Translations under genes and position numbers: made by a program
Notes under the pieces: model-generated
Seen by the model: the letters and a program-made list of their open reading frames with translations, nothing else
Told to the model about the DNA's origin: nothing
The model's database searches: none
Virus record (IMG/VR): IMGVR_UViG_3300022700_000082
Coordinates: 1-55,311 of that record
Source: a virus
Length of the DNA: 55,311 nucleotides
Direction: 5' to 3' (one strand)
In this document: positions 3,264 to 27,879 of the stretch, piece after piece
Numbering within the stretch: position 1 is the stretch's first letter
How the letters are laid out: every line of letters starts with the position of its first letter

Positions 3264-3489
3264 CCCGAATGAGCGCCAGATCGACATCGAGATGCAGCGG
3301 ATCTACATGCAGAGGATCCTGCGCGACTGCCAGGCCTCCGTCCTGATCGCAGTCGACAGAGAAGGGGGACTCGTCTCCGCCTACATGAACCTGAGCCCAA
3401 TAGAGCGACGGGGTATGATAGAACTGCTGCACGACTCGGTGCCGAGATTCTTCGCGGCAGAGGACGAAGACAATGGCGACGAAGACTAA
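3256..3489 (+). CDS. hypothetical protein (77 aa)
   Basis: GTG start overlapping the nrdJ stop by 8 nt. No motif recognised. Confidence 0.5.
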   Translation: MTDPNERQIDIEMQRIYMQRILRDCQASVLIAVDREGGLVSAYMNLSPIERRGMIELLHDSVPRFFAAEDEDNGDED

Positions 3490-4279
3490 AAAGTTCTGGA
3501 CTTTCGTTGGGGAACGTGAGACAATACGCATCCGAAAAGAACGCGGCGACGATCCTCCGTTCACTGATGACCCGAGAATGCGAGACTACTACTTCCCGAA
3601 CCTGCGACGGACCGACGACCCGGCAACCGTCTGGCTCCACGGCGCCCTGCTTCGGCGGCTCGAAAGCCCCGACCAGATCGTCCTGGCGTCGGCGGCCTTC
3701 CGGCTGACCGGCGGATCCATCGCGGCCGGGGAGGCGATGGTCCCGATGTTCACCGGCCCCGGCTTCGACGCGGACATCCTGCTGGGCACCCTGGGCCCCC
3801 TGAAGGCCCCGTTCAACGGGACCGTCCACAGGCACCTGCGTATGGCGACGCTGGCCGACCTGTCCGCCGCCGCCTGCACCTTGGGCGCCGCGAACGGCTA
3901 CTGGCCCCTCCTGAAGGGCGCGTCGCTGTATGACGCCCACAGGGCCCTCAAACGGACGCCGAAAATAGGCCCCGATCTGGCCTACGAGATCGTCTGCGAC
4001 CTGCGCCGGACGGCCGTCCTCCGGGACGCCTCCGACGTGCGCACGTGGGCCCACCCCGGCTTGTCGGCCGTCCTGGCGGCCGGGGCTATCACTGACAATG
4101 ACTGGCGCCACACACGCCAGGCAGATCGCCAGGGGACGCTGCAGCTGATGCGGTTCCTACTGGCGGAAGCCCAGATGGACTACCCAGACTGGGAACTAAG
4201 CGAGATACAGCGGTCTTTGACCCTGTACCACTTCTGGGCCCGAGAGGGCAAACCCACGAGGAGATACCGATGGAAATGA
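3473..4279 (+). CDS. alpha-glutamyl/putrescinyl-thymine pyrophosphorylase (aGPT-Pplase)-like protein (tentative)
   Basis: The N-terminal block FWTFVGERETIRIRKERGDDPPFTDDPRMRDYYFPNLRRTDDPATVWL matches my recollection of that family's conserved block (W..ER..IR..K..G...P.TdDP....Y.F.N..R..D..T.W). By-eye comparison only. Confidence 0.4.
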   Translation: MATKTKKFWTFVGERETIRIRKERGDDPPFTDDPRMRDYYFPNLRRTDDPATVWLHGALLRRLESPDQIVLASAAFRLTGGSIAAGEAMVPMFTGPGFDADILLGTLGPLKAPFNGTVHRHLRMATLADLSAAACTLGAANGYWPLLKGASLYDAHRALKRTPKIGPDLAYEIVCDLRRTAVLRDASDVRTWAHPGLSAVLAAGAITDNDWRHTRQADRQGTLQLMRFLLAEAQMDYPDWELSEIQRSLTLYHFWAREGKPTRRYRWK

Positions 4280-5091: not shown

Positions 5092-7033
5092 AATCGACGC
5101 CCTGCAGATGCCGATGTTTACGAGCGCGGACTCGTCGTGGCGCCCTCCCCATCTGAGTGATCTACCCAGCTGGAAGGGAGCGCCGCGCGTCGCGATCGAC
5201 ATCGAGACCTGCGACCCTGACCTAAAGAAGACCGGGCCGGGCGTCCGGCGCGGCGGCTACATCTGCGGCGTCTCCTTCGCCCTCCAGGGCGACCGCGCCT
5301 ACTACCTCCCCATCCGGCACTTCGGTGGGGACAACATGCCCCACGACCAGATGATCTACTATCTGAAGTCGATGGCGCAGGAGTACGGCGGCGAGGTCAT
5401 CACGGCCAATGGACAATATGACCTGGACTTCCTGGCCCAGGCCGGGATCACGTTCCCGCGCGTCCGCCGGTTCCGGGACGTCCAGATCGCCGACCCCCTG
5501 CTGTACGAGCTGCACAACAGCTACTCGCTGGCAGCGATCCTGACCCGCTGGGGCTACACCGACGGAAAGGACGAGTCGCTCCTGTACCAGGCGGCGAAGG
5601 ACCACGGCGTCGACCCGAAGGGGGGGCTGTGGAAATTGCCTGCCCGCTACGTCGGCCCCTACGCCGAGGGCGACGTCGACCGGCTCTGCGAACTGATCCA
5701 GCGGCAGGAGGACGAACTCCGGCGGCAGGACCTCTGGAACGTCTACGAGCTGGAGTCCCGGCTGCAACCGATCCTCCTGAAGATGCGGCGCAGGGGTGTG
5801 AAGGTCGATCAGGACCAGCTGGCGCGCGTCGAAAAGATGGCGCTAGACGCCGAGGCCAGCGACGCGGCGGAGATCACCCGCCTGACCGGCGTCCGGATGG
5901 GCGTCGACGACTGCAACAAGAAGCAGATCACGGCGGCCGTCCTCGACTCGCGGGGGATCCCCTACGGTTCGACCGAAACTGGCCAGCCCAAGATCGACGT
6001 CGCGACGCTGGAGGCCTCGGCCGATCCCGTCGCGGCGCTGATCCTCCACGCGAAGAAGTCGAACAAGATCCGCACCACGTTCGTCGAGTCGGTCCGCGAC
6101 CACCAGGTGAACGGCCGGATCCACGCGACCTTCAACCAGCTGCGCCGGACACGCGAGACCGGCGACGAGTCAGGCGCGAAGTACGGGCGCCTGTCCTGCT
6201 CCGACCCGAACCTACAGCAGCAGCCCGCCCGCGATCCGGAATACGCGAAGCTCTGGCGCGCGATCTACGTCCCCGACGAGCCCGGAATGATCTGGGCCGC
6301 CTGCGACTACTCGCAGCAGGAGCCCCGTATGCTAGTCCACTTCGCCGAATTGGTTGGGTTGAACGGCGCGCGGGACGCGGCCGAGCGCTACCGGAACGAC
6401 CCGAAGGCGGACAACCACGATATGATGACGGTAATGATCGACCCCACCCTGGAGGCGGTCGACCGGAAGGCGAAGCAGTTTGTCCAGGCGCGGAAGGCAG
6501 CGAAGGCGATCTTCCTGGGCCTATGCTACGGGATGGGATCCGGGAAGCTGGCGGCGTCGGTCGGTCTGCCCACTGTCACCAAGACTCGCGCGGACGGATC
6601 AACCTACCTGGTCGCTGGTCCCGAGGGGCAGGCGCTGCTCGACAAGTTCGACCGGAACGTCCCCTTCGTTCGCGGGATGGCCCGGCTGGTTGAGAAGGAG
6701 GCCAAGCGCAAGGGCTACATCAAGACACTGTCGGGACGGCGCTGCCGGTTCCCTGTCGACGCGGCCGGGAACTTCGAGTGGGCCCACAAGGGTCTGAACA
6801 GACTGATCCAAGGGAGCGCGGCGGATCAGACCAAGAAGGCGATGATCGACCTGGACGAGGCCGGGCACGAGACCCAGCTGCAGGTCCACGACGAAGTATG
6901 CCAGGGCGTCCGGAGCGCGAAGGAAGCCCGCGACATTGCACACATCATGGCGACCTGCCTGAACCTTCGGGTTCCGTCGCGCGTCGACATCGAACTCGGC
7001 CCCAACTGGGGCGAGGCGGAGGAGGTTGACTGA
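5075..7033 (+). CDS. family A DNA polymerase (Pol I-like) with 3'-5' exonuclease domain
   Basis: Exo I motif VAIDIETCD. Pol motifs RLSCSDPNLQQQP, DYSQQEPRMLVHF (motif A), RKAAKAIFLGLCYGMG (motif B) and QVHDEV (motif C). GTG start; downstream in-frame ATGs are possible alternatives. Confidence 0.9.
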   Translation: MAKKARIDALQMPMFTSADSSWRPPHLSDLPSWKGAPRVAIDIETCDPDLKKTGPGVRRGGYICGVSFALQGDRAYYLPIRHFGGDNMPHDQMIYYLKSMAQEYGGEVITANGQYDLDFLAQAGITFPRVRRFRDVQIADPLLYELHNSYSLAAILTRWGYTDGKDESLLYQAAKDHGVDPKGGLWKLPARYVGPYAEGDVDRLCELIQRQEDELRRQDLWNVYELESRLQPILLKMRRRGVKVDQDQLARVEKMALDAEASDAAEITRLTGVRMGVDDCNKKQITAAVLDSRGIPYGSTETGQPKIDVATLEASADPVAALILHAKKSNKIRTTFVESVRDHQVNGRIHATFNQLRRTRETGDESGAKYGRLSCSDPNLQQQPARDPEYAKLWRAIYVPDEPGMIWAACDYSQQEPRMLVHFAELVGLNGARDAAERYRNDPKADNHDMMTVMIDPTLEAVDRKAKQFVQARKAAKAIFLGLCYGMGSGKLAASVGLPTVTKTRADGSTYLVAGPEGQALLDKFDRNVPFVRGMARLVEKEAKRKGYIKTLSGRRCRFPVDAAGNFEWAHKGLNRLIQGSAADQTKKAMIDLDEAGHETQLQVHDEVCQGVRSAKEARDIAHIMATCLNLRVPSRVDIELGPNWGEAEEVD

Positions 7034-7260
7034 TGCAGAGTGACCCGACGTACGACCTGCTGACGATGTTCAAACACCAGGACGAGCAACGGCGCTGGAA
7101 GGCCGAGCGCGAGAACGCGAGCGCCCGCCTGGAACTGGCCCAGATTAGGGAGCGCCTCGCCGAGGTCCTCTCGCAGCACGAACCCGTCGCGAGCCTGAAC
7201 ATCGACCGCGACGACCTGCGGAAGGTCATCGACTACATCCGCAGCGGGAGGAAGATCTGA
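7033..7260 (+). CDS. hypothetical protein (75 aa)
   Basis: Start and stop both overlap the neighbouring genes by 1 nt (TGATG junctions). Charged and helical, with no motif. Confidence 0.55.
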   Translation: MQSDPTYDLLTMFKHQDEQRRWKAERENASARLELAQIRERLAEVLSQHEPVASLNIDRDDLRKVIDYIRSGRKI

Positions 7261-7730
7261 TGCAGAACTATAGCTGGCACCGCCGCTTCATTCAGATGTC
7301 CGGACTCGTGGCGCAATGGTCGAAGGACCCGTCGACGAAGGTCGGCGCCATCCTGGTGAACCCCGAGACCCGGACCGTCGTCGCGACCGGCTACAACGGC
7401 CTGCCCCGCGGCGTCGAGGACCGGCGCGAGCGGATGGAGGTCCGGCCGACGAAGTACCTCTGGACCGAGCACGCCGAACGGAACGCCATCCTGAACGCGG
7501 CACGGAATGGTCACTCGACTGATGGCTGCGTCCTCTACATGAACTTCGAGCCCTGCCCCTGCGCCGACTGCGCTCGGGCCGTGATCCAGGCCGGCATCAT
7601 CGAGATCGTAGGGCCCAACCGACCGTTCGTCGGCAAGGGCACGCAATGGACCGACAACCTAGTGGTCGCGATCGAGATGCTGCTGGAGGCCGGCGTCCGG
7701 ATGACCGTCGTTGAGGACCCGAAGCCATGA
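7260..7730 (+). CDS. dCMP deaminase (cytidine/deoxycytidylate deaminase zinc-binding fold)
   Basis: HAERNAI ... PCPCADCARAVIQAGI (the H-A-E and PC-x2-C zinc motifs); 156 aa. Confidence 0.85.
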   Translation: MQNYSWHRRFIQMSGLVAQWSKDPSTKVGAILVNPETRTVVATGYNGLPRGVEDRRERMEVRPTKYLWTEHAERNAILNAARNGHSTDGCVLYMNFEPCPCADCARAVIQAGIIEIVGPNRPFVGKGTQWTDNLVVAIEMLLEAGVRMTVVEDPKP

Positions 7731-8182: not shown

Positions 8183-8388
8183 AAGGTCCAGCGGGGTCGG
8201 ACCTTTCGCCCGGCAGAAATGTCTGTCGGAATTGTCGCCAAGCCCAATCGGCGCCGAGGACGGAAGATGTCAAGCAGCGTAGGCGAGAGGCCTACTGCGC
8301 GAGCTGCCATCCTCCGCTCGAAGCTCTCGCAGAGCTGCGGCAGATGTGCGACGAGATCAGGATGCACAACCAGGAGTACTGGGGATGA
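8179..8388 (+). CDS. small Cys-pair (zinc-ribbon-like) protein
   Basis: CRNC ... CASC pairs; ATGA overlaps at both ends. Confidence 0.5.
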   Translation: MKGPAGSDLSPGRNVCRNCRQAQSAPRTEDVKQRRREAYCASCHPPLEALAELRQMCDEIRMHNQEYWG

Positions 8389-10694
8389 TGACACCCGTGG
8401 AATTTTTGCAGCGAGTTCACCCCGGACGACCGTGGATCCTGACTGCCATTCAGCCTAGCCAGAAGGGCATCGAGACGCGAGCCTTCCTGCCCGGCCAGGA
8501 GGCCGAGGCGGAGAAGTGGATCGCGGAAAACAACGGTAAACGGAACTTGTATTGGAGCTGCGCCGAGGTTATCAACCCCGAGGACAAGAAGGCCAGCATC
8601 GACAACGTCGCGGCTGTCCACTGGCTCCACGTCGACATCGACGCTGGGCCCGGCGACCTGCTCGCGGAACTCGACCGGATCAAGGCCCTCGTCACGACGG
8701 ACCTGCCGACCGGCGGCATCGATCCCACGGTCGTCGTCTACTCCGGTGGAGGCTACCAGGCCTTCTGGCAGCTGGAGGAACCGATCCAGGTCCTGGGGAA
8801 CGCGGACGTCGCGGCCGAGGTCGCCCGCTACAACAAGCAGCTGGAGCTGATCTTCGGCGGGGACTCCTGCCACAATGTCGACCGGATCATGCGGCTGCCG
8901 GGGACGATGAACATTCCAAACCAGAGGAAAGTCGCGAAGGGCCGGGTCCCGGTCGAGGCGGCCGTCGTCGAGTTCCGGGAGACGACCTACCCCCTCACCG
9001 CGTTCAGCCAGGCGGCCGACGTCGGCCGGACCGGCGACGCGGACGACGTACAGATCAGTGGGAACGTCCAGCGCCTCCTGTCGGTCGACGACCTCGACCA
9101 GTGGAACGTCCACGACCGGACGAAGGTCATCGTCGTCCAGGGAAACGACCCCGACGAGCCTGACCGCCATCCGTCCCGGTCGGAGTGGCTGTTCGACTGC
9201 GTCTGCAACCTGGTCCGCGCCGAGGTCCCGGACGAGACCATCTACTCCGTCCTGACTGACCCAGGCTTCAAAATCAGCGCCTCGGTCCTGGAGACCTCGA
9301 ACCCTGACCGCTACGCGAAGAAGCAGATCAAGTCCGCGAAGGAGGTCGCGGTCTCCGAGAACCTCCACATGCTGAACGCGAAGCACGCGGTCATCGGAAA
9401 CCTCGGCGGGAAGTGCCTGGTCATCGAGGAAGTCTACGACGAGATGATGCAGCGCGACCGGCTGGTCCGCCAGACCTTCTCGGCCTTCCGGGAACGCTAC
9501 ATGAACAAGTTCGAGACCGTGGCCGTCGGCGACAAGACGAAGCAGGTCGCGATCGGTGACTGGTGGCTGCGCCACCCGAAGCGCCGCGAGTACGATCGGC
9601 TGGTGTTCCAGCCTGGCCGGGACGTCCCCGGCGCCTATAACCTCTGGCGCGGCTTCGGCTGCAACGCCCTGCCTGGGTCGAACCACGAACGCTTCCTGAA
9701 GCATCTCCACGACACGGTCTGCCAGGGCGTCGAAGAGCACTACACCTACCTGGTAGGCTGGCTCGCGCGGGCGGTCCAGCATCCCGACCAGCCTGGGCAC
9801 ACCGCGATCGTCATGCGCGGACGCCAGGGCACCGGCAAGTCCTTCTTCGCGAAGCACTTCGGTCGGCTGTTCGGGCGGCACTTCCTGCACGTCTCGAACG
9901 CCAGCCACCTGGTCGGCAACTTCAACGGGCACCTGCGGGACGCGGTCGTCGTCTTCGGCGACGAGGCCTTCTATGCCGGCGACAAGCGCCACGAGTCTGT
10001 CCTGAAGACGCTGATCACCGAGGAGTCCCTGGTCATCGAGACGAAGGGCGTCGACGCCGAGGCGAGCCCAAACTACTGCCACCTGATCCTGGCATCGAAC
10101 TCGAACTGGGTCGTCCCCGTCGGGGCTGGCGATCGTCGCTACTTCGTCCTCGACGTCGGCGAGGAGTATGCTCGGAACGTCAGGCACTTCGGCGACATCG
10201 CGCGCGACCTGGAGAACGGCGGCTACGAGAACCTGCTCCACTTCCTGATGCACTACGACCTGACCGACTACAACGTCCAGGCGATCCCCGACACCGGCGC
10301 CCGCCGCGACCAGCACGAGGAGTCGCTCGCCCCGCATGAGGAGTGGTGGCTGTCCGTCCTGGAGGACGGCCTCCTGGGCGGCGTGGTCTGGGACCCCGAC
10401 CACGCGGAGATCGTCGTCCCGAACTCCCCCGTCTGGCAGTCCTATCAAACAGCGACGGAGAACACCCCCCTGGTCAGGAAGCTTTCGAATACGAAGCTGG
10501 GCAACTTCCTGAAGCGGATGCTGCCCGGCGACTACCCGAAGCGGAAGAAGATCCGCGTCGATGGACGACCGGAGAACGCGCGCGTCTTTCCGACCCTCGA
10601 CGTCGCCCGGAAGGAATGGGATCGGATCAGCGGAGCGCCTCGTCAGTGGCCCGATGTCTCCCTCATCGACCCCGACGACGACCTGCCCTTCTGA
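8385..10694 (+). CDS. primase-polymerase / SF3 (P4-D5-VirE type) helicase fusion
   Basis: N-terminal motifs HWLHVDIDAG, VVYSGGGYQAFW, DRIMRLPGTMN. Walker A GRQGTGKS and Walker B VVVFGDEA. The ORF's first ATG is 8346, but 8385 is preferred because of its ATGA overlap with the upstream stop and an AGGAG 8 nt upstream. Confidence 0.85.
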   Translation: MMTPVEFLQRVHPGRPWILTAIQPSQKGIETRAFLPGQEAEAEKWIAENNGKRNLYWSCAEVINPEDKKASIDNVAAVHWLHVDIDAGPGDLLAELDRIKALVTTDLPTGGIDPTVVVYSGGGYQAFWQLEEPIQVLGNADVAAEVARYNKQLELIFGGDSCHNVDRIMRLPGTMNIPNQRKVAKGRVPVEAAVVEFRETTYPLTAFSQAADVGRTGDADDVQISGNVQRLLSVDDLDQWNVHDRTKVIVVQGNDPDEPDRHPSRSEWLFDCVCNLVRAEVPDETIYSVLTDPGFKISASVLETSNPDRYAKKQIKSAKEVAVSENLHMLNAKHAVIGNLGGKCLVIEEVYDEMMQRDRLVRQTFSAFRERYMNKFETVAVGDKTKQVAIGDWWLRHPKRREYDRLVFQPGRDVPGAYNLWRGFGCNALPGSNHERFLKHLHDTVCQGVEEHYTYLVGWLARAVQHPDQPGHTAIVMRGRQGTGKSFFAKHFGRLFGRHFLHVSNASHLVGNFNGHLRDAVVVFGDEAFYAGDKRHESVLKTLITEESLVIETKGVDAEASPNYCHLILASNSNWVVPVGAGDRRYFVLDVGEEYARNVRHFGDIARDLENGGYENLLHFLMHYDLTDYNVQAIPDTGARRDQHEESLAPHEEWWLSVLEDGLLGGVVWDPDHAEIVVPNSPVWQSYQTATENTPLVRKLSNTKLGNFLKRMLPGDYPKRKKIRVDGRPENARVFPTLDVARKEWDRISGAPRQWPDVSLIDPDDDLPF

Positions 10695-12714: not shown

Positions 12715-12791
12715 AACTGGAACCCCTGCTCGGCATCGCGATCTGGCTCGCCATTGTCGGGACCTGGAACCTGTGGAAAAGGAGACGCTGA
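12711..12791 (+). CDS. 26-aa single-TM micropeptide (MKLEPLLGIAIWLAIVGTWNLWKRRR)
   Basis: ATGA overlap with the upstream stop, and its TGA shares 1 nt with the clpP-like ATG. Hydrophobic core with a basic tail. Confidence 0.4.
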   Translation: MKLEPLLGIAIWLAIVGTWNLWKRRR

Positions 12792-13360
12792 TGGCGACGA
12801 TCCGCCGAGACGATCATGACCGCTTCTTCGACTACGACATCCACGTCCCGAGCCGGACCCTGTTCGTCGGCGGAGAGGTCGACGCCGAACTGGCCGAGCG
12901 CCTGATCAAGGGGCTCCACCTGCTGACGGCCGCCGCGAAGGAGGGCCCGGTCCGGATCCTCCTGAACTCCCCCGGCGGCGACGTCTACGATGGGCTCGCA
13001 GCCTACGACGCGATCGCGACCTGTCCGGCCCACGTCACAGTCGTCGCCTTCGGGCACGCAATGTCGATGGGCTCCTGGATCATCCAGGCGGCCGACGAAC
13101 GGGTCCTGGCTCCGTCCTGCACGATGATGATCCACCACGGCTCCGGCGGGATCCACGACCGATACAAGTATGTCCAGGCCGAGGCGGCCGAACACGCTCG
13201 GATCGCGCGCCTGATGGAGCAGACCTACCTGCGCCGGATCAAGGAGAGGGACCCGACCTTCTCGGCCCGGCGCCTGAAGACGATGCTCGACACCGACACC
13301 TACCTGACCGCCGTCGAGGCGGTCGAGCTGGGCCTGGCCGACCGGGTCCTGGGGGACTAG
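12791..13360 (+). CDS. clpP: ClpP-like serine protease (S14 family)
   Basis: LNSPGGDVYDGLAAYD, catalytic Ser context GHAMSMGS, His context MMIHHG. Strong SD AAAGGAG before 12791. The ORF's first start at 12698 lacks an SD. Confidence 0.8.
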   Translation: MATIRRDDHDRFFDYDIHVPSRTLFVGGEVDAELAERLIKGLHLLTAAAKEGPVRILLNSPGGDVYDGLAAYDAIATCPAHVTVVAFGHAMSMGSWIIQAADERVLAPSCTMMIHHGSGGIHDRYKYVQAEAAEHARIARLMEQTYLRRIKERDPTFSARRLKTMLDTDTYLTAVEAVELGLADRVLGD

Positions 13361-14330: not shown

Positions 14331-14557
14331 AGCTGCTCGTCGTGACGGACAACCTCGCCTACATCGGAGAGGAATCCGCGATGAATGGGACCGCGACGAC
14401 GCTGTCCCAGCCCGCGATCGTCCGGATGGTCCGGTCGGCCGATGCCATCGCATCGGTCGCCGCCCGGCGCCCGGCCGACGAGTTCCTGACGAAGATCGAC
14501 GGCCGCGTGATCATCCCCGATCGCCGCATCCGCGTCGTCGTCGAGTGCGCCTGGTAA
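14327..14557 (+). CDS. hypothetical protein (76 aa)
   Basis: ATGA-coupled ORF with no motif. Confidence 0.5.
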   Translation: MKLLVVTDNLAYIGEESAMNGTATTLSQPAIVRMVRSADAIASVAARRPADEFLTKIDGRVIIPDRRIRVVVECAW

Positions 14558-14647
14558 CAGCCCACGGCGACTGGGGACGCTCCTCTACATTTGGCTCGCG
14601 ACGCGCTGGGACATGGCCACAGAGATGTGCCGGATCTCGGGGCTGTA

Positions 14648-14821
14648 GGCACACTAATTGACACATGGCAGGATGCGCGAAATTCCGCCACTGATCGTGC
14701 ATACCACCAAGCCAGAAGGGACAACGGGGAATCCTCGGGAAGCATGCGGAGCCGTGAGGTATGGCACACGACTTGCTACTACATACATGTAAGCGCAAAC
14801 CAAACAGGAGGAACCAAGATG
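14648..14821 (+). repeat. copy A of a duplicated ~175-nt regulatory cassette (copy B at 15789..15965)
   Basis: Shared blocks: ggcacactaattgacNcatggcaggatgcgcgaaat, atcgtgcat, tggcacacNNNttgctacta, caaaccaaacNggaggNaacaagATGA. Roughly 70% identity by eye. Confidence 0.8.
14762..14777 (+). promoter_or_regulatory. sigma54 (RpoN) -24/-12 promoter
   Basis: TGGCACacgacTTGCT matches TGGCAC-N5-TTGCW with correct GG-N10-GC spacing. Intergenic, about 40 nt upstream of an SD (CAGGAGGA) and the ATG at 14819. Confidence 0.7.
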
Positions 14822-14935
14822 ACACGCAAGCAGACCCTCAGCCTCATCACCGCCGCCACAGCAGCCGCCATCGCGATGCCCTTGGTGATCAAGCTGGTCG
14901 GCCTGCTGACCGCCCTGAACACCCTGGCCAACTAA
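14819..14935 (+). CDS. 38-aa hydrophobic (membrane) peptide
   Basis: MTRKQTLSLITAATAAAIAMPLVIKLVGLLTALNTLAN. Strong SD. First ORF after the sigma54 promoter. Confidence 0.5.
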   Translation: MTRKQTLSLITAATAAAIAMPLVIKLVGLLTALNTLAN

Positions 14936-14946
14936 GGAGCACTACC

Positions 14947-15147
14947 ATGACGACCAAACAAGCACGCAAATTGGGCTACCTGATCAACCGAGGTGCTTAC
15001 TTTGGCACCACCGACGACCGTGCCGACCGCTGGTACATCGAGCGCATCGACGCAGACTGTGTTGACCGCTGCGGCCCAGGCTACAGGACACGTAGAGAGG
15101 CCCTGGACTGCATCGCGGACTTCGCCGCCCAAGAGGTACCCAAATGA
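14947..15147 (+). CDS. hypothetical protein (66 aa)
   Basis: AAGGAG SD upstream. Begins MTTKQARKLGYLINRG... Confidence 0.55.
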   Translation: MTTKQARKLGYLINRGAYFGTTDDRADRWYIERIDADCVDRCGPGYRTRREALDCIADFAAQEVPK

Positions 15148-15494
15148 GGCCAATCTCCCAGATCCGCCGCGACACAGACAACATGAAGAAAGAAGGTAGT
15201 AAGATGGGAATTGGAAAGTATTGCATCGTCCGCACGTATTGTGCTGGAGTGTTCGCTGGCGAGCTTATCAGCCGAAATGGAAAGGAGGGCGTGGTCGTCA
15301 ACGCCCGTCGGTTGTGGTTCTGGTCCGGTGCCGCGACGTTGAGCGAGCTTGCCCTGCGCGGCGTGGGGCGCCCCGAGAAATGCAAGTTCCCCGACGCGGT
15401 ACCCGAAGTCCTGCTGACGGAGATCATCGAGGTCATCGTCTGCACCGCCGATGCGCGGGCGAGTATTGAGGCGGTGCCACCATGGCGAGCATGA
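15144..15494 (+). CDS. conserved phage hypothetical protein (core starts MGIGKYCIVRTYCAGVFAGEL)
   Basis: The ATG at 15144 forms an ATGA overlap with the upstream stop. Alternative starts at 15184 or 15205. The KYCIVRT...ARRLWFWSGAATLSELA core resembles a recurrent phage family, from memory. Confidence 0.6.
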   Translation: MRPISQIRRDTDNMKKEGSKMGIGKYCIVRTYCAGVFAGELISRNGKEGVVVNARRLWFWSGAATLSELALRGVGRPEKCKFPDAVPEVLLTEIIEVIVCTADARASIEAVPPWRA

Positions 15495-15664
15495 TTGACG
15501 ACGGCGACGGCTACGGCACCGACTACGGCTCCGGCTCCGGCTCCGGCGACGGCTACGGCTACGGCTCCGGCGACGGCTCCGGCTACGGCGACGGCTACGG
15601 CTCCGGCTACGGCTCCGGCGACGGCTACGGCTCCGGCGACGGCGACGGCTCCGGCTACGGCTGA
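15482..15664 (+). CDS. (X-Gly)n low-complexity protein, X = Asp/Tyr/Ser/Thr (60 aa)
   Basis: MASMIDDGDGYGTDYGSGSGSGDGYGYGSGDGSGYGDGYGSGYGSGDGYGSGDGDGSGYG. Encoded by degenerate GGCTACGGCTCCGGCGAC tandem repeats (~15497-15661). The start overlaps the upstream gene by 13 nt. Confidence 0.45.
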   Translation: MASMIDDGDGYGTDYGSGSGSGDGYGYGSGDGSGYGDGYGSGYGSGDGYGSGDGDGSGYG

Positions 15665-15807
15665 CGAACGGGCGGGGCGGGCGTAGCGAACGGATGAACA
15701 ACCGCCAGGTGGTCGATTACTTCCTGCGCGAGGCCCGTGCCTGCGAACGGGAGCTGGAAATCCGGAAAACTGGCCGCGTGCTGACGGTGGCACACTAATT
15801 GACCCAT

Positions 15808-15850
15808 GGCAGGATGCGCGAAATCCGGCTCCCGTATCGTGCATCCTGCC
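15808..15850 (+). promoter_or_regulatory. perfect 10-bp dyad GGCAGGATGC-N23-GCATCCTGCC (candidate enhancer/UAS or RNA hairpin)
   Basis: The arms at 15808-15817 and 15841-15850 are exact reverse complements. In copy A (14667-14676 / 14699-14708), 7 of the 10 stem positions can still base-pair. Confidence 0.5.
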
Positions 15851-15859
15851 AATCCCGAA

Positions 15860-15894
15860 GGAACAATGAGGAACCCCCTGGAACAACAAGGAAC
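15860..15894 (+). promoter_or_regulatory. four GGAAC pentamers at exact 10-bp spacing, immediately upstream of the sigma54 -24 element
   Basis: GGAAC at 15860, 15870, 15880 and 15890. Copy A has degenerate GGA(C/A/G) at 14719, 14728, 14738 and 14748. The distance from the last repeat to the -24 GG is 15 nt in both copies. Confidence 0.6.
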
Positions 15895-15903
15895 CATAGG
15901 ACA

Positions 15904-15919
15904 TGGCACACCGGTTGCT
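15904..15919 (+). promoter_or_regulatory. sigma54 (RpoN) -24/-12 promoter
   Basis: TGGCACaccggTTGCT. Intergenic, about 43 nt upstream of an SD (ACGGAGG) and the ATG at 15963. Confidence 0.7.
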
Positions 15920-15962
15920 ACTATTGGGCGTACGCAGCAACAAACCAAACGGAGGCAACAAG

Positions 15963-16127
15963 ATGAAGAACCTGCTCAACGACAACAAGATCGACAACCT
16001 GCTGAACCGCATCGAGATCGCCGACGACAACGACCGCTCCTGGATGACCGACGTCGCCACCAGCGATCCATACCACAAGCCCACCGAAGACAACACCCCC
16101 AACTGGCGCATGACGCTGCACGGATAA
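15963..16127 (+). CDS. hypothetical protein (54 aa)
   Basis: Begins MKNLLNDNKIDNLLNRIEIADDNDRSW... First ORF after the second sigma54 promoter. Confidence 0.5.
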   Translation: MKNLLNDNKIDNLLNRIEIADDNDRSWMTDVATSDPYHKPTEDNTPNWRMTLHG

Positions 16128-16138
16128 GGAGAGCAACC

Positions 16139-16348
16139 ATGGAAACATTCCCCGAAATCATGCACCTGATCCTAACCCATCGCACCACGCCCATCGCCGA
16201 AGACAACGCGGGCTACCAAGGGATCGAAGGAGACGGCTTCACGTTCGGCATGGGCCACGACACGCTGGTCATCGACGTCCGATGCGACATGGCCATCATC
16301 CAACTCTTCCGCGACGACGAATACCTGACCCAATGGGAGGTCCGATAA
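16139..16348 (+). CDS. hypothetical protein (69 aa)
   Basis: AAGGAGAG SD upstream. Begins METFPEIMHLIL... Confidence 0.5.
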   Translation: METFPEIMHLILTHRTTPIAEDNAGYQGIEGDGFTFGMGHDTLVIDVRCDMAIIQLFRDDEYLTQWEVR

Positions 16349-16611
16349 TGGCTACCTGCACCTGCGGAAAGAGAATGTCCAAGTACGCGACCGAATGCCG
16401 CGCCTGCGCTAAGGCACACACCCAGCGCCTCCGCGCCGAAGGGCTCGCCATCCTCGCCAAGGGCGTCTGCCCCGACTGCGGCAGGCCGCTCAAGCGCAAC
16501 CTCGCCATCGCCGGATGGTGGCAATGTGAACAATACGGCGCAGACACGCACCGCGCCGACCCCACGCAGCCCAGCTGCAACTGGCAGATCATCATCCCCC
16601 AGGAGGACTGA
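16348..16611 (+). CDS. zinc-ribbon protein (87 aa)
   Basis: CTCG...CRAC and CPDCG...C pairs. The start ATG shares 1 nt with the upstream TAA stop (TAATG). Confidence 0.55.
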   Translation: MATCTCGKRMSKYATECRACAKAHTQRLRAEGLAILAKGVCPDCGRPLKRNLAIAGWWQCEQYGADTHRADPTQPSCNWQIIIPQED

Positions 16612-16613
16612 TC

Positions 16614-16772
16614 ATGACACGCAAAGAAGCACTCATCCGAATCGCCCAAGAGCACATGCGAAAATCAGACGAAAGCCTGTCACCTCGACAAATGGCGAAA
16701 ATCAGACGGCTCCGAGATCAGGTCCAATCCATGCTGCTGCTGCGCGAAACGAGGAGATCTAACCATGCCTGA
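16614..16772 (+). CDS. hypothetical basic helical protein (52 aa)
   Basis: AGGAGGA SD upstream. Absent from the track because it is under 60 aa. Begins MTRKEALIRIAQEHMRKSDE... Confidence 0.45.
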   Translation: MTRKEALIRIAQEHMRKSDESLSPRQMAKIRRLRDQVQSMLLLRETRRSNHA

Positions 16773-16926
16773 ACGGCGACCGCGAACAAACACTGCGTGA
16801 CCAGGTGGTCGCTGCACACAACGCCCTACGGGCCGGAAGATCCTCGGCGAGCCGCGCGGCGTATGACGCTGCATGGATACGGCATAGGCCGGATCCTGAG
16901 CGCCGTCTGCTAGGTCAAAAAAAAGC

Positions 16927-16955
16927 TTTACTTTTGGGCCCAGATAGACTACAAT
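16927..16955 (+). promoter_or_regulatory. sigma70-type promoter TTTACT-N17-TACAAT with upstream A8 tract
   Basis: -35 at 16927-16932, -10 at 16950-16955, and an A-run at ~16917-16924. Lies in a 200-nt intergenic gap. SD GGAGGA and the ATG at 16975 follow. Confidence 0.6.
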
Positions 16956-16974: not shown

Positions 16975-17193
16975 ATGAAGGAAACTCGCTCAACTATACG
17001 CCCCACCGGACAAGGACACCTGGCAATGAGAATGCTTCTACACGCCGCGCACGGCGAGATGCCCTTCGCCACCCACATAGAAGTCCAGAAGCCCGACGGA
17101 TGGGCGACCTGCTCCGGGAACTACTTCGCGACCGAGGCCGAGGCCCGCCGCGACTACGAGAAGCGCTGCAAACAGATTGGAGTCCGACCGTGA
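16975..17193 (+). CDS. hypothetical protein (72 aa)
   Basis: Good SD; no motif. Confidence 0.55.
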   Translation: MKETRSTIRPTGQGHLAMRMLLHAAHGEMPFATHIEVQKPDGWATCSGNYFATEAEARRDYEKRCKQIGVRP

Positions 17194-17504: not shown

Positions 17505-18005
17505 GTGAACTCGTCCAACAGTTCGCTGATCCGCACCGCGCAAGAGATCTGGCGGCAGGACCTGCGCATGCTGCTGGACGAGGGCGGGAAAGCCATGGGC
17601 TATCGCGACCCGTTCTTCCGGCGCGTGGCGTTGCCGATGTGGCTGGCGCGGCGGGAATACCCTTCTGCTGCGCTGGACACATTATGGCGGACGATTGGCG
17701 CATGGCTGTCATGTATTGGATCAAAGGAGCGATGGATGTTGTCGAAAAGTAGTGCCGCGCATAACCGGCGGCTGTTTCTGCTGAAGCAGGTGCCGTTCTT
17801 CGGTGCCGTACTGGCCAAGGACCTGGAGCACATGGACAAGGTGGAACACCGTGTGGGCGATCTGGCTGCGCTTGTGTCGGGCGGAACCGTCCGCAGGTTG
17901 CGTCGCGCAGGGAAGATGCCCAGGTATTCGAAAACGTGGCGAGGTGCGTTTCGTGTGTGGCGTGAGCGGTATATGGATCCGCGCACGAATGAAGTAGGAC
18001 CATGA
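17505..18005 (+). CDS. hypothetical protein (166 aa, GTG start) in lower-GC cassette
   Basis: Longest sense ORF in this stretch. Codon usage is visibly less GC3-biased than in flanking genes. No motif. Confidence 0.4.
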   Translation: MNSSNSSLIRTAQEIWRQDLRMLLDEGGKAMGYRDPFFRRVALPMWLARREYPSAALDTLWRTIGAWLSCIGSKERWMLSKSSAAHNRRLFLLKQVPFFGAVLAKDLEHMDKVEHRVGDLAALVSGGTVRRLRRAGKMPRYSKTWRGAFRVWRERYMDPRTNEVGP

Positions 18006-18684
18006 ATGAGCTGGCTTTATTCGCGGGTGCTGGTGGAGGCATACTCGGCGGCCAACTGCTCGGATGGCGCACCGTCTGCGCTGTCGAAAACGATCCCTAC
18101 GCCGCAAGCGTACTTGTCGCCCGGCAGAATGACGGCGTTCTCCCGCCTTTCCCGATTTGGGATGACGTTCGCACCTTTGACGGACGACCTTGGCGCGGAA
18201 TGTTGATGTGGTTTCGGGCGGGTTCCCATGCCAAGCATTTAGTACGGCGGCTAGAGGGCGAAACACCGCGCATAATCTGTGGCCGCAGATGCTCCGCGTT
18301 ATCGGCGACGTATGCCCACAATTCGTGTTTGCCGAAAACGTCAGCGAAGACGCGATCTGTGAAGCACAAGCCGACCTTGCCTGTGCTGGATACACGGCGA
18401 TCCGTGGCATGGTCGCGGCGGGCGACGTGGGCGCAGACCATCCTCGGGAAAGATGGTGGTTGGCTGCCGACTCCGACCACAAAGGCAAATTGGGCGGCAG
18501 CCTCGATGCAGAAGTGGCCAAGCTCAAGGCGTGCGACAAAGGTGTTTGGTCACCCTACGCCGGAGGTCCACGAATATCTGATGGGGTGGCCCCCAGGGTG
18601 GACAGATTTAAAGCCGTTGGGAACGGGCAAATACCAGTCGTGGCTGCAATCACATGGCAAGTCCTGTCCGGAAGAAAGGATTGA
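18002..18684 (+). pseudogene. C5 cytosine DNA methyltransferase split across two reading frames (frameshift near 18185-18200)
   Basis: The frame starting at 18002 carries motif I LFAGAGGG and motif II CAVENDPYA. The frame from 18190 carries motif IV GGFPCQAFS, motif VI FAENV, motif VIII HPRERWWL and motif X AVGNGQIPVV. The junction reads ...VRTFDGRPW / ARNVDVVSGGFPCQ. Confidence 0.75.
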
Positions 18685-18687
18685 CCG

Positions 18688-19050
18688 ATGAACAAGTGCC
18701 CGGTCTGTAAAGGGCGTGGGGGTTCTCCTGGGATTGCATGCGGCGAGGACAGATGCAAGGACGACAGAGGGCTCTGGAGCAACGCGAACCGGATCCTCTG
18801 CGAACAATACCACGGCCCGCCGCCGGTCGACCCCGACGGGAAGCGGATCGTCTGCCGCCACCTGAACCACGACCTGCGGCTCGAGAACCTGGCCTGGGGG
18901 ACGGACGACTACCGCGAGATGATCCGCCTGCGGGAGACCGGGATGACCTGCCAGGTCGGCTGCTCCGTCGGATACGTCTCCGACATCTGCCGAGGCGGGG
19001 CCGCCGCCTGGGAGACCGAGGACCTGTGGGAGGAGGTCGGCGCCGACTGA
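18688..19050 (+). CDS. HNH-like endonuclease with C-terminal HTH-like segment (tentative)
   Basis: CPVC...C...C N-terminus. IVCRHLNHDLRLENLAWGTDDY resembles the H-N-(N) core of phage HNH enzymes. Starts 4 nt after the methylase stop. Confidence 0.4.
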   Translation: MNKCPVCKGRGGSPGIACGEDRCKDDRGLWSNANRILCEQYHGPPPVDPDGKRIVCRHLNHDLRLENLAWGTDDYREMIRLRETGMTCQVGCSVGYVSDICRGGAAAWETEDLWEEVGAD

Positions 19051-19150
19051 ACAGGGCCCTTCAAAGTCCGGGGCTGCCTGTGAAATTTTGGCCAGGGGAC
19101 CACCACCCCCCATCCCGGCGGGGGGGAGCCGCCCCCCTCGTCCTGGGCGC

Positions 19151-19971
19151 ATCGTTCCTCGCGTTCTGCCCGATCGCGTCGTCCCTCGTTGTTCCCCATC
19201 GTTCCTCGGCCGAGAGCATGTGACGGAGCGAACTCACAATCATTGCCGATCGTTCCCCGTAGGCCCACAGCTCGAGCGATCCTTCCCCATTGTTCCGCAT
19301 ATCACTCGCATCGTTCCTCAGCCCGAGCGATCCGTCCCCTATCGTTTCCAATCGCGAGCGTTGAGGGTCGATCGTTCCTCAGCCTGAGCGATCGTTCCCC
19401 ATAAGGCCCAATCGCGAGCGATCATTCCCCCTGGCGCCCAATCAGGGCACAAGGCAGTGCATGCTGGGCGCGTCGTTCCCGATAAGGGCCCAGCGCTCGG
19501 CGTCGTTCCCCAAAGCGCCCCGTTGTGTAAAAATGGCCACACTCCCCGTTGGTCCTTGTCGTTCCTGCCCTTTTGGCAGGTCGCAGCGTTCCCCATTGTT
19601 CCTCCCCGGATTCAGGCGCGCGCGCGCGAGCCAGAATATGTGGGCGGGGATTAGCTTGTTCCACCTTAGCCCGATTCGTTCCGGCCCTGTTCCGACCTTG
19701 GTGTCACGGTAGGAACGCCCTCAATCAGCCCAAAGCGCGCGCCCCAAGGCAATCTTTCTTCTTTTGTTCCTACCGTTCCTACCAAGAGAAGAAGTTAAGT
19801 AAAGAATGGAAAAACGCGCCCCCTACGCCCTGCGTCGTTCTGCCACGCAACTAGGGCCCCAAGGTCGGAACGGTAGGAACACTTGCATAAGTCGGTTCCG
19901 GATATACACTTGCGCCGTTCTGACCCTTGTTCCGACCTAGTCTAGGTAGGAACGCCCGAAAAGCGGGAACC
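19151..19971. repeat. non-coding array of 25 GTTCC/GGAAC pentamers (consensus ~TCGTTCC[CT]C), helically phased; candidate iteron/ori, pac or regulator-binding region
   Basis: Top-strand GTTCC at 19154, 19191, 19201, 19252, 19292, 19313, 19374, 19394, 19475, 19505, 19561, 19588, 19598, 19658, 19678, 19689, 19766, 19775, 19895 and 19929. GGAAC at 19712, 19867, 19876, 19949 and 19966. There are also about 8 one-mismatch variants. No credible ORF in the region. Confidence 0.85.
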
Positions 19972-20030
19972 CTCGGCGCCTCGGCATCGTATAAGATCCC
20001 GCTGCCCGTCACCACGGAAGGGCGCTCGGA

Positions 20031-20513
20031 ATGGTCGACAACCTGCCTATCAAGTTCGACGCCGACGCGCGCCATCGGTTCCTGCAGTACTACGCTTTGA
20101 CGGGCCAGATCCAGAAGTCGGCTCGTGAGATCGGCATCTCACCTGCGACGGTCCGGCGGGTCGCGAAGCAGGACCCGGCCTTCAAGGAGGCGATGGAGGA
20201 GGCGAAGCAGGACTTCGTCGAGGCGATGGAGCGTGAGGTTGTTCGGCGCGCGGTCATGGGCGTCGACGAGCCGGTCTTCCAGCAGGGCGAGCAGGTCGGC
20301 GAGGTCCGGAAATATTCCGACGCCCTGCTGATGATGCTGATGAAGAAGCTGGATCCGACCTACAAGGAGAAGCACCAGATCGACGTCTCGCTGGGTGGCG
20401 GGATCCTTGCGGTCCCTGCCCAGGAGGCGGAGGATGAGTGGGAGAAGCGGAACTCAATCGACGCGGACTACGCGGTCGTAGATGAGGAGGAGCCCGATGC
20501 AGAAAACGATTGA
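20031..20513 (+). CDS. terS: terminase small subunit (HTH type)
   Basis: HTH SAREIGISPATVRRVAKQDPAFKEAMEEAK followed by ...RKYSDALLMMLMKKLDPTYKEK, the typical small-terminase pattern. Acidic C-terminus. Lies upstream of terL. Confidence 0.8.
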   Translation: MVDNLPIKFDADARHRFLQYYALTGQIQKSAREIGISPATVRRVAKQDPAFKEAMEEAKQDFVEAMEREVVRRAVMGVDEPVFQQGEQVGEVRKYSDALLMMLMKKLDPTYKEKHQIDVSLGGGILAVPAQEAEDEWEKRNSIDADYAVVDEEEPDAEND

Positions 20514-26266: not shown

Positions 26267-27229
26267 ATGGCTTCTGTGACTTTGACCGAAAGCGCCAAGC
26301 TGAGCCAGAACGAGCTGGTGGCTGGCGTCATCGAGAACATCATCACCGTCAATCAGATGTACGAGGTCCTGCCGTTCGACGGGATCGACGGCAACGCCCT
26401 GGCCTACAACCGCGAGAACGCCCTCGGCGGCGTCGGTGTGATCGGCGTGGGCGACACCATCGGCTCCAGCGATGCCAACCCCCTTAGCGGTGGTTCCGGC
26501 GAGGCCAAGGACGCCGCGACCTTCACCCAGGTGACTTCCAGCCTGACCACCATCCTCGGCGACGCCGAGGTGAACGGGCTGATCCAGTCCACTCGGTCCA
26601 ACATCAACGACCAGGCGAGCGTTCAGATCGCCAGCAAGTCCAAGCACGTCGGCCGACTGTACCAGTACATGCTGGTGAACGGCTCCGCCTCCGGCACCGA
26701 CCAGTTCGACGGCCTGCTTACCCTCTGTGCCGCTGGCCAGAAGACCAGCCCCAGCACCGACGGCGACGCGCTGACCCTCGCGCTGCTCGACGAGCTGGCC
26801 GACAAGGTCACCGCCAAGGACGGCGCCTTGGACTTCTACGCCATGCACGCGCGCGAGCGTCGGGCCTACCGGACTCTGCTCCGGGCCCTCGGCGGCGCCG
26901 CGATCATGGAAGTCGTGGAACTGCCCAGCGGCGATCAGGTCATGGCCTACAGCGGCGTTCCGGTCTTCCGGAACGACTACATCCCCATCGACCAGACCCA
27001 GGGCGGCAGCACCGACGCGACCAGCGTCATCGCCGGTGTCCTGGACGACGGCTCCCGTAGCATCGGCGTCTCGGGCCTGACTGCCTCCGAGCAGGCGGGC
27101 GTCCACGTCGTCGACGTCGGCGAGGCTGCCGCGAAGGACGAGCACATCTGGCGCGTCAAGTGGTACGCTGGGCTCGCCCTGTTCAATGAGAAGGGTCTCG
27201 CGGTCGCGCCGGGCATCGTCCCTGCCTAG
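26267..27229 (+). CDS. major capsid protein
   Basis: 320 aa with an AAGGAGG SD. Follows the scaffold gene. N-terminus is LSQNELVAGVIENIITVNQMYEVLPFDGIDGNALAYNRE, typical of a phage major-capsid family by memory. Confidence 0.75.
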   Translation: MASVTLTESAKLSQNELVAGVIENIITVNQMYEVLPFDGIDGNALAYNRENALGGVGVIGVGDTIGSSDANPLSGGSGEAKDAATFTQVTSSLTTILGDAEVNGLIQSTRSNINDQASVQIASKSKHVGRLYQYMLVNGSASGTDQFDGLLTLCAAGQKTSPSTDGDALTLALLDELADKVTAKDGALDFYAMHARERRAYRTLLRALGGAAIMEVVELPSGDQVMAYSGVPVFRNDYIPIDQTQGGSTDATSVIAGVLDDGSRSIGVSGLTASEQAGVHVVDVGEAAAKDEHIWRVKWYAGLALFNEKGLAVAPGIVPA

Positions 27230-27243
27230 ACCATGTTCCCATG

Positions 27244-27263
27244 TGAGGGGCCTTCGGGCCCCT
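27244..27263 (+). terminator. GC hairpin with TTCG tetraloop after the capsid gene (terminator/attenuator candidate, no U-tract)
   Basis: GAGGGGCC-TTCG-GGCCCCTC, with a perfect 8-bp stem. Confidence 0.45.
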
Positions 27264-27300
27264 CGCCCAGACCCCTCTCCGTTGAAAGGACGGTAGCACA

Positions 27301-27879
27301 ATGGCATTCTATCTGCTTACCAACCCCGGAGCGAAGAACTCGAAAGCGAAGGCCCTCGTCGTCCAGGCCGAGTCGGCTGCGGACGCGAAGACCGTCGCAT
27401 CCTCGTACTTCGACGGGGACTCAGGCTGGAGTGGTGCGACCTCCGTCGCCCTGACCGGCACCACGCTCGACGCGGCCTCGTGCCTCTCAGGTTGGACCTT
27501 CAAGATCATCATCCGGGGCGGCGCGGCCCAGTCCGTCGACCCCATCGTGATCAGCCACACCGCCTCCGGGACCGATGACCTCGACGCCGTCGCGGCCGAC
27601 CTGGTCACCGCCCTGAACGCGGACGCCGACATCGCGAACGCTGCCTACTCGGCCCCCGACCTGACCATTAGCTCGATCGCTGATGGCCTAGGCGACGCGG
27701 CCGTGACTTTCCACGCCTATCCCCCGGCCTCCGAGCTGGCGGCGACGGACGTGGACCTCGGCGCGCTGTTCGTGGGTGCCGGTGGTATCACGGACGAGGG
27801 CATCGCGGCTGCGGTCCTGGAGATCGCCTTGGTGGCCGACACCGAGAGCAAACCGAAGGTCTTCGGTGTCGTCTACTAG
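27301..27879 (+). CDS. hypothetical virion-module protein (possible head decoration)
   Basis: 192 aa, Ala/Asp-rich. Assigned by position after the capsid gene only. Confidence 0.5.
   Translation: MAFYLLTNPGAKNSKAKALVVQAESAADAKTVASSYFDGDSGWSGATSVALTGTTLDAASCLSGWTFKIIIRGGAAQSVDPIVISHTASGTDDLDAVAADLVTALNADADIANAAYSAPDLTISSIADGLGDAAVTFHAYPPASELAATDVDLGALFVGAGGITDEGIAAAVLEIALVADTESKPKVFGVVY

Follow-up and report, generated by a model that had tools for sequence, protein, structure and literature searches.

A duplicated cassette with candidate host-sigma54-dependent promoters upstream of small accessory genes in a YuA-like phage

The viral DNA studied here is the IMG/VR record IMGVR_UViG_3300022700_000082, positions 1 to 55,311 (63% GC); this whole stretch of 55,311 nt is called the window in the following. 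It carries two sigma54-type -24/-12 elements, P1 and P2, which are probably a pair of enhancer-dependent promoters served by the sigma54 (RpoN) of the host, contained in a duplicated cassette and driving two accessory blocks of four genes each. A sigma54 promoter has to be opened by an ATP-driven activator and is otherwise silent. The use of sigma54 by a phage is a rare strategy that is already documented, and what is new is this case. An earlier note on the same DNA had proposed the two elements as sigma54 promoters. Its reading is partly supported: it holds for the promoter identity and for the missing phage activator, and it was incomplete on the structure of the cassette and on a second repeat system. 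The two elements are:

14762–14777, plus strand: P1, sigma54-type -24/-12 element TGGCACACGACTTGCT, exact consensus match, predicted start near 14788
15904–15919, plus strand: P2, sigma54-type -24/-12 element TGGCACACCGGTTGCT, exact consensus match, predicted start near 15930

Both 16-mers were indeed found at the positions and on the strand given before, and in both the GG-N10-GC spacing is exact. The predicted starts follow from placing the GC element at -13/-12. The published sigma54 consensus reads TGGCACG-N4-TTGCW (PMC4482717). When both strands of the window were searched for the exact pattern TGGCAC-N5-TTGCT, P1 and P2 alone were returned, as the earlier note had said of full matches in the 55 kb; the chance expectation from dinucleotide shuffles is 0.01. 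With up to two mismatches allowed we counted 12 sites against 18 expected, showing no wider enrichment. More importantly, both elements sit where promoters are expected to sit. From the end of the motif to the start codons ATG 14819 and ATG 15963 there are 42 nt (P1) and 44 nt (P2), and each ATG follows the Shine–Dalgarno (SD) sequence GGAGG. The surrounding gaps, 14558–14818 and 15665–15962, hold no open reading frame (ORF) with a high GC content at third codon positions (GC3), and they are the only sizeable non-coding gaps of the small-ORF region. No sigma70-type promoter was predicted at P1 or P2, nor any alternative one for the eight genes. The ATGGCAC of the motifs was also considered as a start codon and rejected at both motifs on GC3, frame and absence of an SD: the ORF from 14761 has a GC3 of 0.61 and overlaps g1, the first gene behind P1, out of frame, and the 20-codon extension before 15963 reaches about 0.65 by our own count, compared with 0.89–0.93 in real genes.

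The two elements are embedded in a regulatory cassette of about 175 nt that is present twice, with the following parts:

14648–14821, plus strand: regulatory cassette copy 1, comprising the distal block, phased GG units, -24/-12 element, leader and g1 start codon (repeat families D2, D4 and D18; pairwise alignment)
15789–15965, plus strand: regulatory cassette copy 2 (direct repeats D2, D4 and D18; pairwise alignment)
14648–14688, plus strand: distal conserved block of copy 1, GGCACACTAATTGACACATGGCAGGATGCGCGAAATTCCGC, 41 nt, 93% identical to copy 2; candidate enhancer or operator
15789–15829, plus strand: distal conserved block of copy 2, from the direct repeat and the alignment with copy 1
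15807–15851, plus strand: dyad or hairpin TGGCAGGATGCGCGA-N15-TCGTGCATCCTGCCA (inverted repeat I13), arms 93% complementary, centre at about -100 relative to the P2 start
14666–14709, plus strand: weaker dyad in copy 1 with the 3' arm TCGTGCATACCACCA, loop one base shorter, outer stem broken without compensating changes
15788–15803, plus strand: distal sigma54-like site TGGCACACTAATTGAC with 2 mismatches, its -12 element being GA instead of GC; the copy-1 counterpart is AGGCACACTAATTGAC at 14647–14662

The similarity between the copies starts sharply at GGCACAC (GGCACACTAATTGAC) and stops at AAGATGA with the start codon, and the DNA farther upstream is unrelated. P1 and P2 are thus the ends of one duplicated element and must be counted as one event plus retention, not as two independent occurrences. 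What was retained is informative. In the -24/-12 block ATGGCACAC-NNN-TTGCTACTA, all 11 specified positions are the same in both copies, and all three differences fall within the five spacer positions (11/0 against 2/3, p ~0.02 in our own Fisher calculation). The stretch from -10 to +10 has drifted, and the CA-rich leader CAAACCAAAC-GGAGG, which is predicted to be unstructured, is kept together with the SD. The middle of the cassette is only about 70% identical and yet keeps its GG(A/G)A units strictly phased at 10 nt. The best-conserved part is the distal block, located at about -140 to -100 from the predicted start, which contains the 5' arm of the dyad; no further copy with up to three mismatches exists in the window, and other intergenic motifs shared within the window were not found. 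From this pattern the layout appears to be the one expected of an enhancer-dependent promoter region that is selected at the core, at the enhancer position and at the ribosome site.

The distal block opens with a degenerate copy of the promoter, (T/A)GGCACACTAATTGAC, in which GA replaces GC at -12. Its core score is 11.3, compared with 12.8–18.7 for real sites. A bound Salmonella sigma54 site with TTGAT exists (PMC3844500), and weak binding of sigma54 at this GA-type site may occur. The 15-mer GGCACACTAATTGAC is also found in an unrelated AT-rich viral contig (L238:1-1043, IMGVR_UViG_3300033993_000907), where it occurs four times within a nested palindrome of about 45 nt, TTACTAATCGGCACACTAATTGACAATTAGTTGCCAATTAGTAA. 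This sharing is probably a coincidence; a shared type of operator could also explain it. Folded as RNA, the copy-2 dyad gives -33.2 kcal/mol with z = -4.0. A structured RNA was nevertheless rejected, as there is no Rfam family, no tRNA and, in copy 1, a broken outer stem without compensation. The reading of the copy-2 hairpin as an intrinsic terminator was discarded as well, the hairpin being without a U-tract.

Where, then, would the activator come from? We detected no sigma54-activator signature (GAFTGA, the Walker A form GESGxGKE, R-finger) in the six frames of the window, and Pfam Sigma54_activat had no match in the 30 ORFs scanned, which were 20 of the left arm and 10 small ones, the structural-module ORFs lying outside the scan. 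The absence of a phage activator asserted before is hence upheld. Without a detectable activator of the phage, the activator must be that of the host if the promoters work, and expression would depend on its presence and activity. We propose that host RNA polymerase with sigma54 would form a closed complex on the -24/-12 core, and that a host AAA+ enhancer-binding protein on the distal block (-140 to -100) would loop to the polymerase and open the promoter. The 10-nt-phased GG(A/G)A repeats in between could bend the DNA or be bound by an architectural or regulatory protein, replacing the IHF site. Transcripts would start near 14788 and 15930, carry unstructured CA-rich leaders and code for small accessory proteins in two sets of four, whose genes lie between the DNA-metabolism and the packaging modules. 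The small genes may then be gated by a host activator and hence by host physiology, as the earlier note proposed.

That the host activator is the only input is less obvious in view of the phased repeats. They are arranged as follows:

15860–15894, plus strand: four GGAAC pentamers with exact 10-nt spacing (15860, 15870, 15880, 15890), about -70 to -36 from the P2 start
14718–14752, plus strand: degenerate P1 counterparts GGGAC, GGAAT, GGAAG and GGAGC, the GG being held in 10-nt phase

The run before P2 is the only run of three or more in the window, and a run of four or more did not appear in any of 300 shuffles. Other GGAAC pairs spaced by 10 nt are rare, and five of the six fall into one place, an array before terS. 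This array occupies a non-coding stretch of about 1 kb at 19050–20030, directly upstream of terS, with at least 25 GTTCC/GGAAC pentamers (background 1.4 and 2.2 per kb). They are concentrated in about 820 nt (19150–19970), with spacings that are mostly multiples of about 10 nt. Extended forms are ATCGTTCC(C/T)C and ATTGTTCC, and the right part shows inverted pairs around an AT-rich core at 19785–19815. The minimum of the cumulative GC skew of the window falls within 19050–20030 as well. Judged by these features, the array resembles an iteron origin or a TerS/pac recognition array. The closest relative, L005, lacks it.

The phased run may act through its shape in place of IHF, or it may be occupied by the array-binding protein, and the shared pentamer hints at a second DNA-binding input, possibly encoded by the phage. 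Taken further, this leads to an alternative in which P1 and P2 are real sigma54 promoters, with the decisive control being phage-specific: a protein that binds GGAAC/GTTCC, which might be the replication initiator or some other phage protein, would sit on the repeats at -70 to -36 and on the array at 19.05–20.03 kb, would bend the DNA for activation or block the loop and so silence the promoters, and would tie the accessory genes to the phage programme and not to host physiology alone. First candidates for this protein are the primase-helicase of 782 aa (8346–10694) and TerS (20031–20513). The exact phasing of the four units before P2, unique in the window and not reproduced by shuffling, the GG phase held before P1 although the sequence drifted, the density and periodicity of the same pentamer in the array with its share of the spaced pairs, and the lack of an IHF site in both cassettes all fit this idea. 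However, none of the four P2 units agrees with the array consensus TCGTTCC; two correspond to the ATTGTTCC variant, and the other two are GGTTCC. Before P1 the units are degenerate, the binding protein is hypothetical, and the pentamer is so short that phased GG/AA could work by DNA shape alone. We regard control by such a protein as rather unlikely.

Returning to host-sigma54 promoters opened by a host activator, a number of observations weigh against them, and they are given here together. The RpoN-matrix scan suggested by the earlier note had a divided outcome. We built the matrix from 29 intergenic ChIP-chip-bound Salmonella sites (Table 3, PMC3844500), Salmonella being an AT-richer organism. 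On the full 18-nt position-specific scoring matrix (PSSM), P1 scores 13.0 and P2 13.2, below every training site (16.4–26.3) and about the median best score of shuffled windows. These low 18-column scores are caused by the GC-rich spacer and 3' flank. Perfect sites in two GC-rich relatives, L125 and L136, likewise have GC-rich spacers. With the core-only, 11-column matrix, P1 and P2 score 18.6, at the top of the training range (12.8–18.7). This matrix gives the TGGCAY/TTGCW variants nearly equal scores, and an equally good core appeared somewhere in 18 of 200 mononucleotide shuffles (9%) of the 55-kb window. The outer stem and the loop length of the dyad are unlike between the copies. An IHF consensus (WATCAANNNNTTR, up to one mismatch) is absent between block and core in both cassettes. 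Known activator sites were tried on the distal block and rejected: for the FleQ box GTCaNTAAAtTGAC (PMC6120874) only a half-site with 5 mismatches was found, and the patterns of NtrC, NifA and CbrB do not match. An orthologous promoter locus was not found by DNA, by exact IMG/VR patterns, by the promoter-adjacent proteins or by TerL. Finally, no terminator is predicted between the stop of the upstream gene at 14557 and P1, making read-through possible. In numbers, the match alone is worth p ~0.01–0.09, and the sigma54 case rests on the match plus position, orientation and the conservation pattern between the paralogous copies.

Some of these points could also mean that the motifs are not used as promoters at all, with the small genes read through from upstream, the cores being chance or vestigial sequences duplicated with the cassette, and at most a non-productive binding of the holoenzyme. 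Besides the missing terminator, the sub-threshold PSSM scores and the frequency of equal cores in shuffles, this view can call on the many ChIP-bound Salmonella sigma54 sites that are not operon promoters (PMC3844500) and on phage YuA, where only one of three sigma54 fragments could be assigned to a mapped start (PMC10914365). Nevertheless, position, strand and distance to an SD-led ATG are right at P1 and at P2, the core is fully kept in spite of drift in the spacer and between -10 and +10, the block at the enhancer position is the best conserved part, and no other promoter is predicted for the eight genes. Idle motifs are in our view quite improbable. We consider it very improbable that ATGGCACAC-N3-TTGCTACTA belongs to a phage-specific transcription factor or redirected polymerase, like the 28-bp motif of YuA, and merely mimics the sigma54 consensus: GGCACAC-N3-TTG occurs four times, two per cassette, and also opens each distal block, the conservation runs past the sigma54 core to ACTA, and YuA has a phage-specific motif at nine mapped promoters (PMC10914365), but both elements of the sigma54 core and their spacing are matched exactly, there is no resemblance to the YuA motif (CTTTACTTCTTCGG...CCACTATA), and the needed factor is hypothetical, with no sigma-like or polymerase gene seen among the scanned ORFs.

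A third sigma54-like site, TGGCATTCTATCTGCT at 27302, is weaker, overlaps a start codon and has a score within the chance range. The stretch 27302–27319, TGGCATTCTATCTGCTTA, agrees in 15 of 18 positions (own count) with a site bound in Salmonella, that of hydH (PMC3844500). It follows a probable capsid gene (26267–27229, labelled by position) and a hairpin read at about 27246–27265, and it overlaps the ATG of the gene 27301–27879.

Behind the two host-sigma54 candidates lie the following genes, all defined as SD-led high-GC3 ORFs in the case of the P1 block:

14819–15664, plus strand: gene block behind P1
14819–14935, plus strand: g1, 38 aa, hydrophobic
14947–15147, plus strand: g2, in the P1 block
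15204–15494, plus strand: g3, DUF6948 (Pfam)
15482–15664, plus strand: g4, DGYGSG repeats
15963–16772, plus strand: gene block behind P2, with the genes 15963–16127, 16139–16348, 16348–16611 (Cys-rich) and 16614–16772, no family hits

The count of about eight small genes given before is right, with four from P1 to P2 and four from P2 to a promoter-like site at about 16926–16955. When ten small proteins were scanned with Pfam, one was DUF6948, the g4 repeat protein gave a sub-threshold match only, and the other eight had no family. The term "host-interaction", used earlier for these genes, is a label by position for the small-ORF region with no finding behind it. The protein of g4 (60 aa) consists nearly entirely of D/S/Y-G dipeptide repeats, encoded by 27 copies of a 6-nt unit; its GC3 is 0.97, and 13 nt are shared with the end of the DUF6948 gene. 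The SD and N-terminus of g1 (MTRKQTLSLI...) resemble those of the 16614 gene (MTRKEALIRI...), with 70% DNA identity between 14805–14851 and 16600–16646, which suggests a further local duplication among the small genes. We also considered that a sigma54 promoter travels with the DUF6948 gene and rejected this, its homologues (65–70% identical) in five other phage contexts having no upstream sigma54 motif. Before the gene at 16975, at 16918–16955, A8-GCTTTACTTTTGGGCCCAGATAGACTACAAT is the sole sigma70-like promoter that was predicted in the stretch from 13.5 to 21.2 kb. The 5' half of this site resembles the phage-specific motif CTTTACTTCTTCGG of YuA, and the window holds no more copies of it.

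All genes are on the plus strand, in the order DNA-metabolism left arm, small-ORF region, terS/terL and structural genes. The left arm contains, according to Pfam, a ribonucleotide reductase, a 5-hmdU DNA kinase-like protein, DNA polymerase A, dCMP deaminase, primase-helicase, ClpP and an M15 peptidase. The large subunit of the ribonucleotide reductase (528–3263) is split by an intein that contains a homing-endonuclease domain of the LAGLIDADG type. The gene of the ClpP-family protease (12791–13360) sits in this DNA-metabolism arm, distant from the head genes. The 5-hmdU DNA kinase-like protein (HMUDK_hel, 3473–4279) and the dCMP deaminase (7260–7730) suggest a hypermodified thymidine in the DNA of this phage. 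Such a base has been reported for the YuA/M6 group.

The phage itself appears to be a near-singleton, an uncultivated relative of Pseudomonas phage YuA. Its TerL shares 55–58% identity with that of Stenotrophomonas, Bordetella and Pseudomonas phages in the family to which YuA belongs, the Mesyanzhinovviridae. Its nearest relative, with a TerL identity of 82%, is a contig of 4.8 kb whose sequence does not extend to the promoter region, and all other TerL relatives in IMG/VR, metagenome records and GTDB genomes are at most 57% identical. The promoter region has no nucleotide match to phage records, and for the first 25 kb the sole megablast match is about 250 nt within the gene at 18002–18691. 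Two contigs that matched IMG/VR patterns, L003 and L238, were dismissed as relatives. They are AT-rich and unrelated, one being a chance match in a coding region and the other the palindromic AT-rich repeat that shares 15 nt. We then counted sites in 213 loci (2.4 Mb, 207 of them TerL-bearing). Exact TGGCAY-N5-TTGCW is at chance level across these loci, with the exception of L125 and L136. The activated-sludge contig L125 (ENA UOWG01002170, TerL 52%) has five perfect sigma54 sites at 3480–4240, and L136 (FRDC01001684, TerL 49%) has four perfect, identical sites (6250–6700, also L136:59). The cores are TGGCACGCYGTTTGCT, TGGCACGCGCCTTGCT and TGGCATGGCGTTTGCT, with 0.01 expected. These sites are clustered and face both ways in long divergent non-coding control regions, which by eye have their own dyad repeats at enhancer-like distances. 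The available sequence of either locus contains no activator signature. The clusters are independent evidence that sigma54 promoters may recur in this broad lineage.

What would this mean? Accessory genes behind a sigma54 promoter would be conditional on a specific host signalling pathway. It is also conceivable, if doubtful, that the cassettes form a two-input switch on a virulent phage, in which a private enhancer for one host activator is combined with GGAAC sites read by an array-binding phage protein, and that the sigma54 strategy is recurrent and lineage-wide. If this were true, the eight accessory genes would be conditional on the physiological state of the host, the sigma54 promoters would be coupled to replication or packaging, and enhancer-dependent transcription would be a lineage-wide YuA-like strategy and not an oddity of YuA. 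The clusters in L125 and L136 suggest that the strategy is more widespread in the lineage than the literature shows. The present case is also cleaner than YuA, with perfect cores, a duplicated cassette whose divergence marks the functional positions and a candidate enhancer that could reveal the host activator. The practical value is modest: promoter annotation in Mesyanzhinovviridae-like phages would improve, and a defined 175-bp fragment is available for reporter tests.

Compared with known systems, P1 and P2 share several features with the classical bacterial sigma54 promoters. Those activated by NtrC, XylR or PspF combine an upstream activator site with an IHF bend; in such promoters the activator site is expected about 80–150 bp upstream, and an IHF site or intrinsic bend is common though not universal. 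The GG/GC core with its exact spacing and the short leader are alike, and the conserved block about 100–140 bp upstream with its partial dyad is a candidate for the enhancer. Unlike the classical cases, the cassettes have no IHF consensus and no match to the activator sites tested, and 10-nt-phased GGAAC units fill the looping region; the spacer is GC-rich, and a virus carries the promoter but has no detectable activator to go with it.

The loci L125 and L136 resemble the window in having several perfect sites of the TGGCAY-N5-TTGCT type in non-coding control DNA, a related terminase (49–52%) and no activator signature. They differ in that their sites face in both orientations within one divergent region of 0.4–0.75 kb, 2–3.5 kb upstream of terL, and are near-identical including the spacer, with different flanking dyads and no similarity to the cassette of the window.

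The closest precedent is YuA itself, for which Ceyssens et al. (J Bacteriol 190:1429, 2008) reportedly described host sigma54-dependent promoters. PMC5053324 states that YuA depends on the host sigma54 and calls the use of sigma54 by phages rare, naming YuA as the example, and in PMC10914365 the mapping of a start site to one of the three fragments was done by ONT-cappable-seq. The precedent invoked by the earlier note is thus documented as to host-sigma54 dependence; the placement in the small-ORF region did not stand. With the positions of the GenBank annotation, the "-24/-12" fragments are at 38392–38570 (before the scaffold gene), 40888–41035 (within gp57) and 47152–47312 (before gp68), all in the head/tail/lysis module. 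No YuA site within one mismatch of the sigma54 consensus was found, the fragments included. The 28-bp phage-specific motif of the nine mapped YuA promoters is CTTTACTTCTTCGG-N-CCACTATA (PMC10914365). It is likewise a repeated intergenic promoter element of the same lineage, with one look-alike in the window at about 16926–16955, but its sequence is not related to that of the cassettes and it has a sigma70-like -35/-10 geometry, and no motif of this type is present at P1 or P2. The window agrees with YuA in the Mesyanzhinovviridae-like lineage, the all-plus-strand layout, the order of DNA-metabolism, small-ORF and packaging regions, the reliance on host sigma54 (predicted here) and the lack of a phage-encoded activator. 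It departs from YuA in that its sites are perfect, belong to a duplicated cassette and precede small accessory genes upstream of terS, 5–6 kb upstream of terL, whereas the YuA fragments are poor matches to the consensus and are located in the structural/lysis module. Taking sequence and position together, P1 and P2 are best described as putative functional analogues of the YuA promoters and not as their orthologues.

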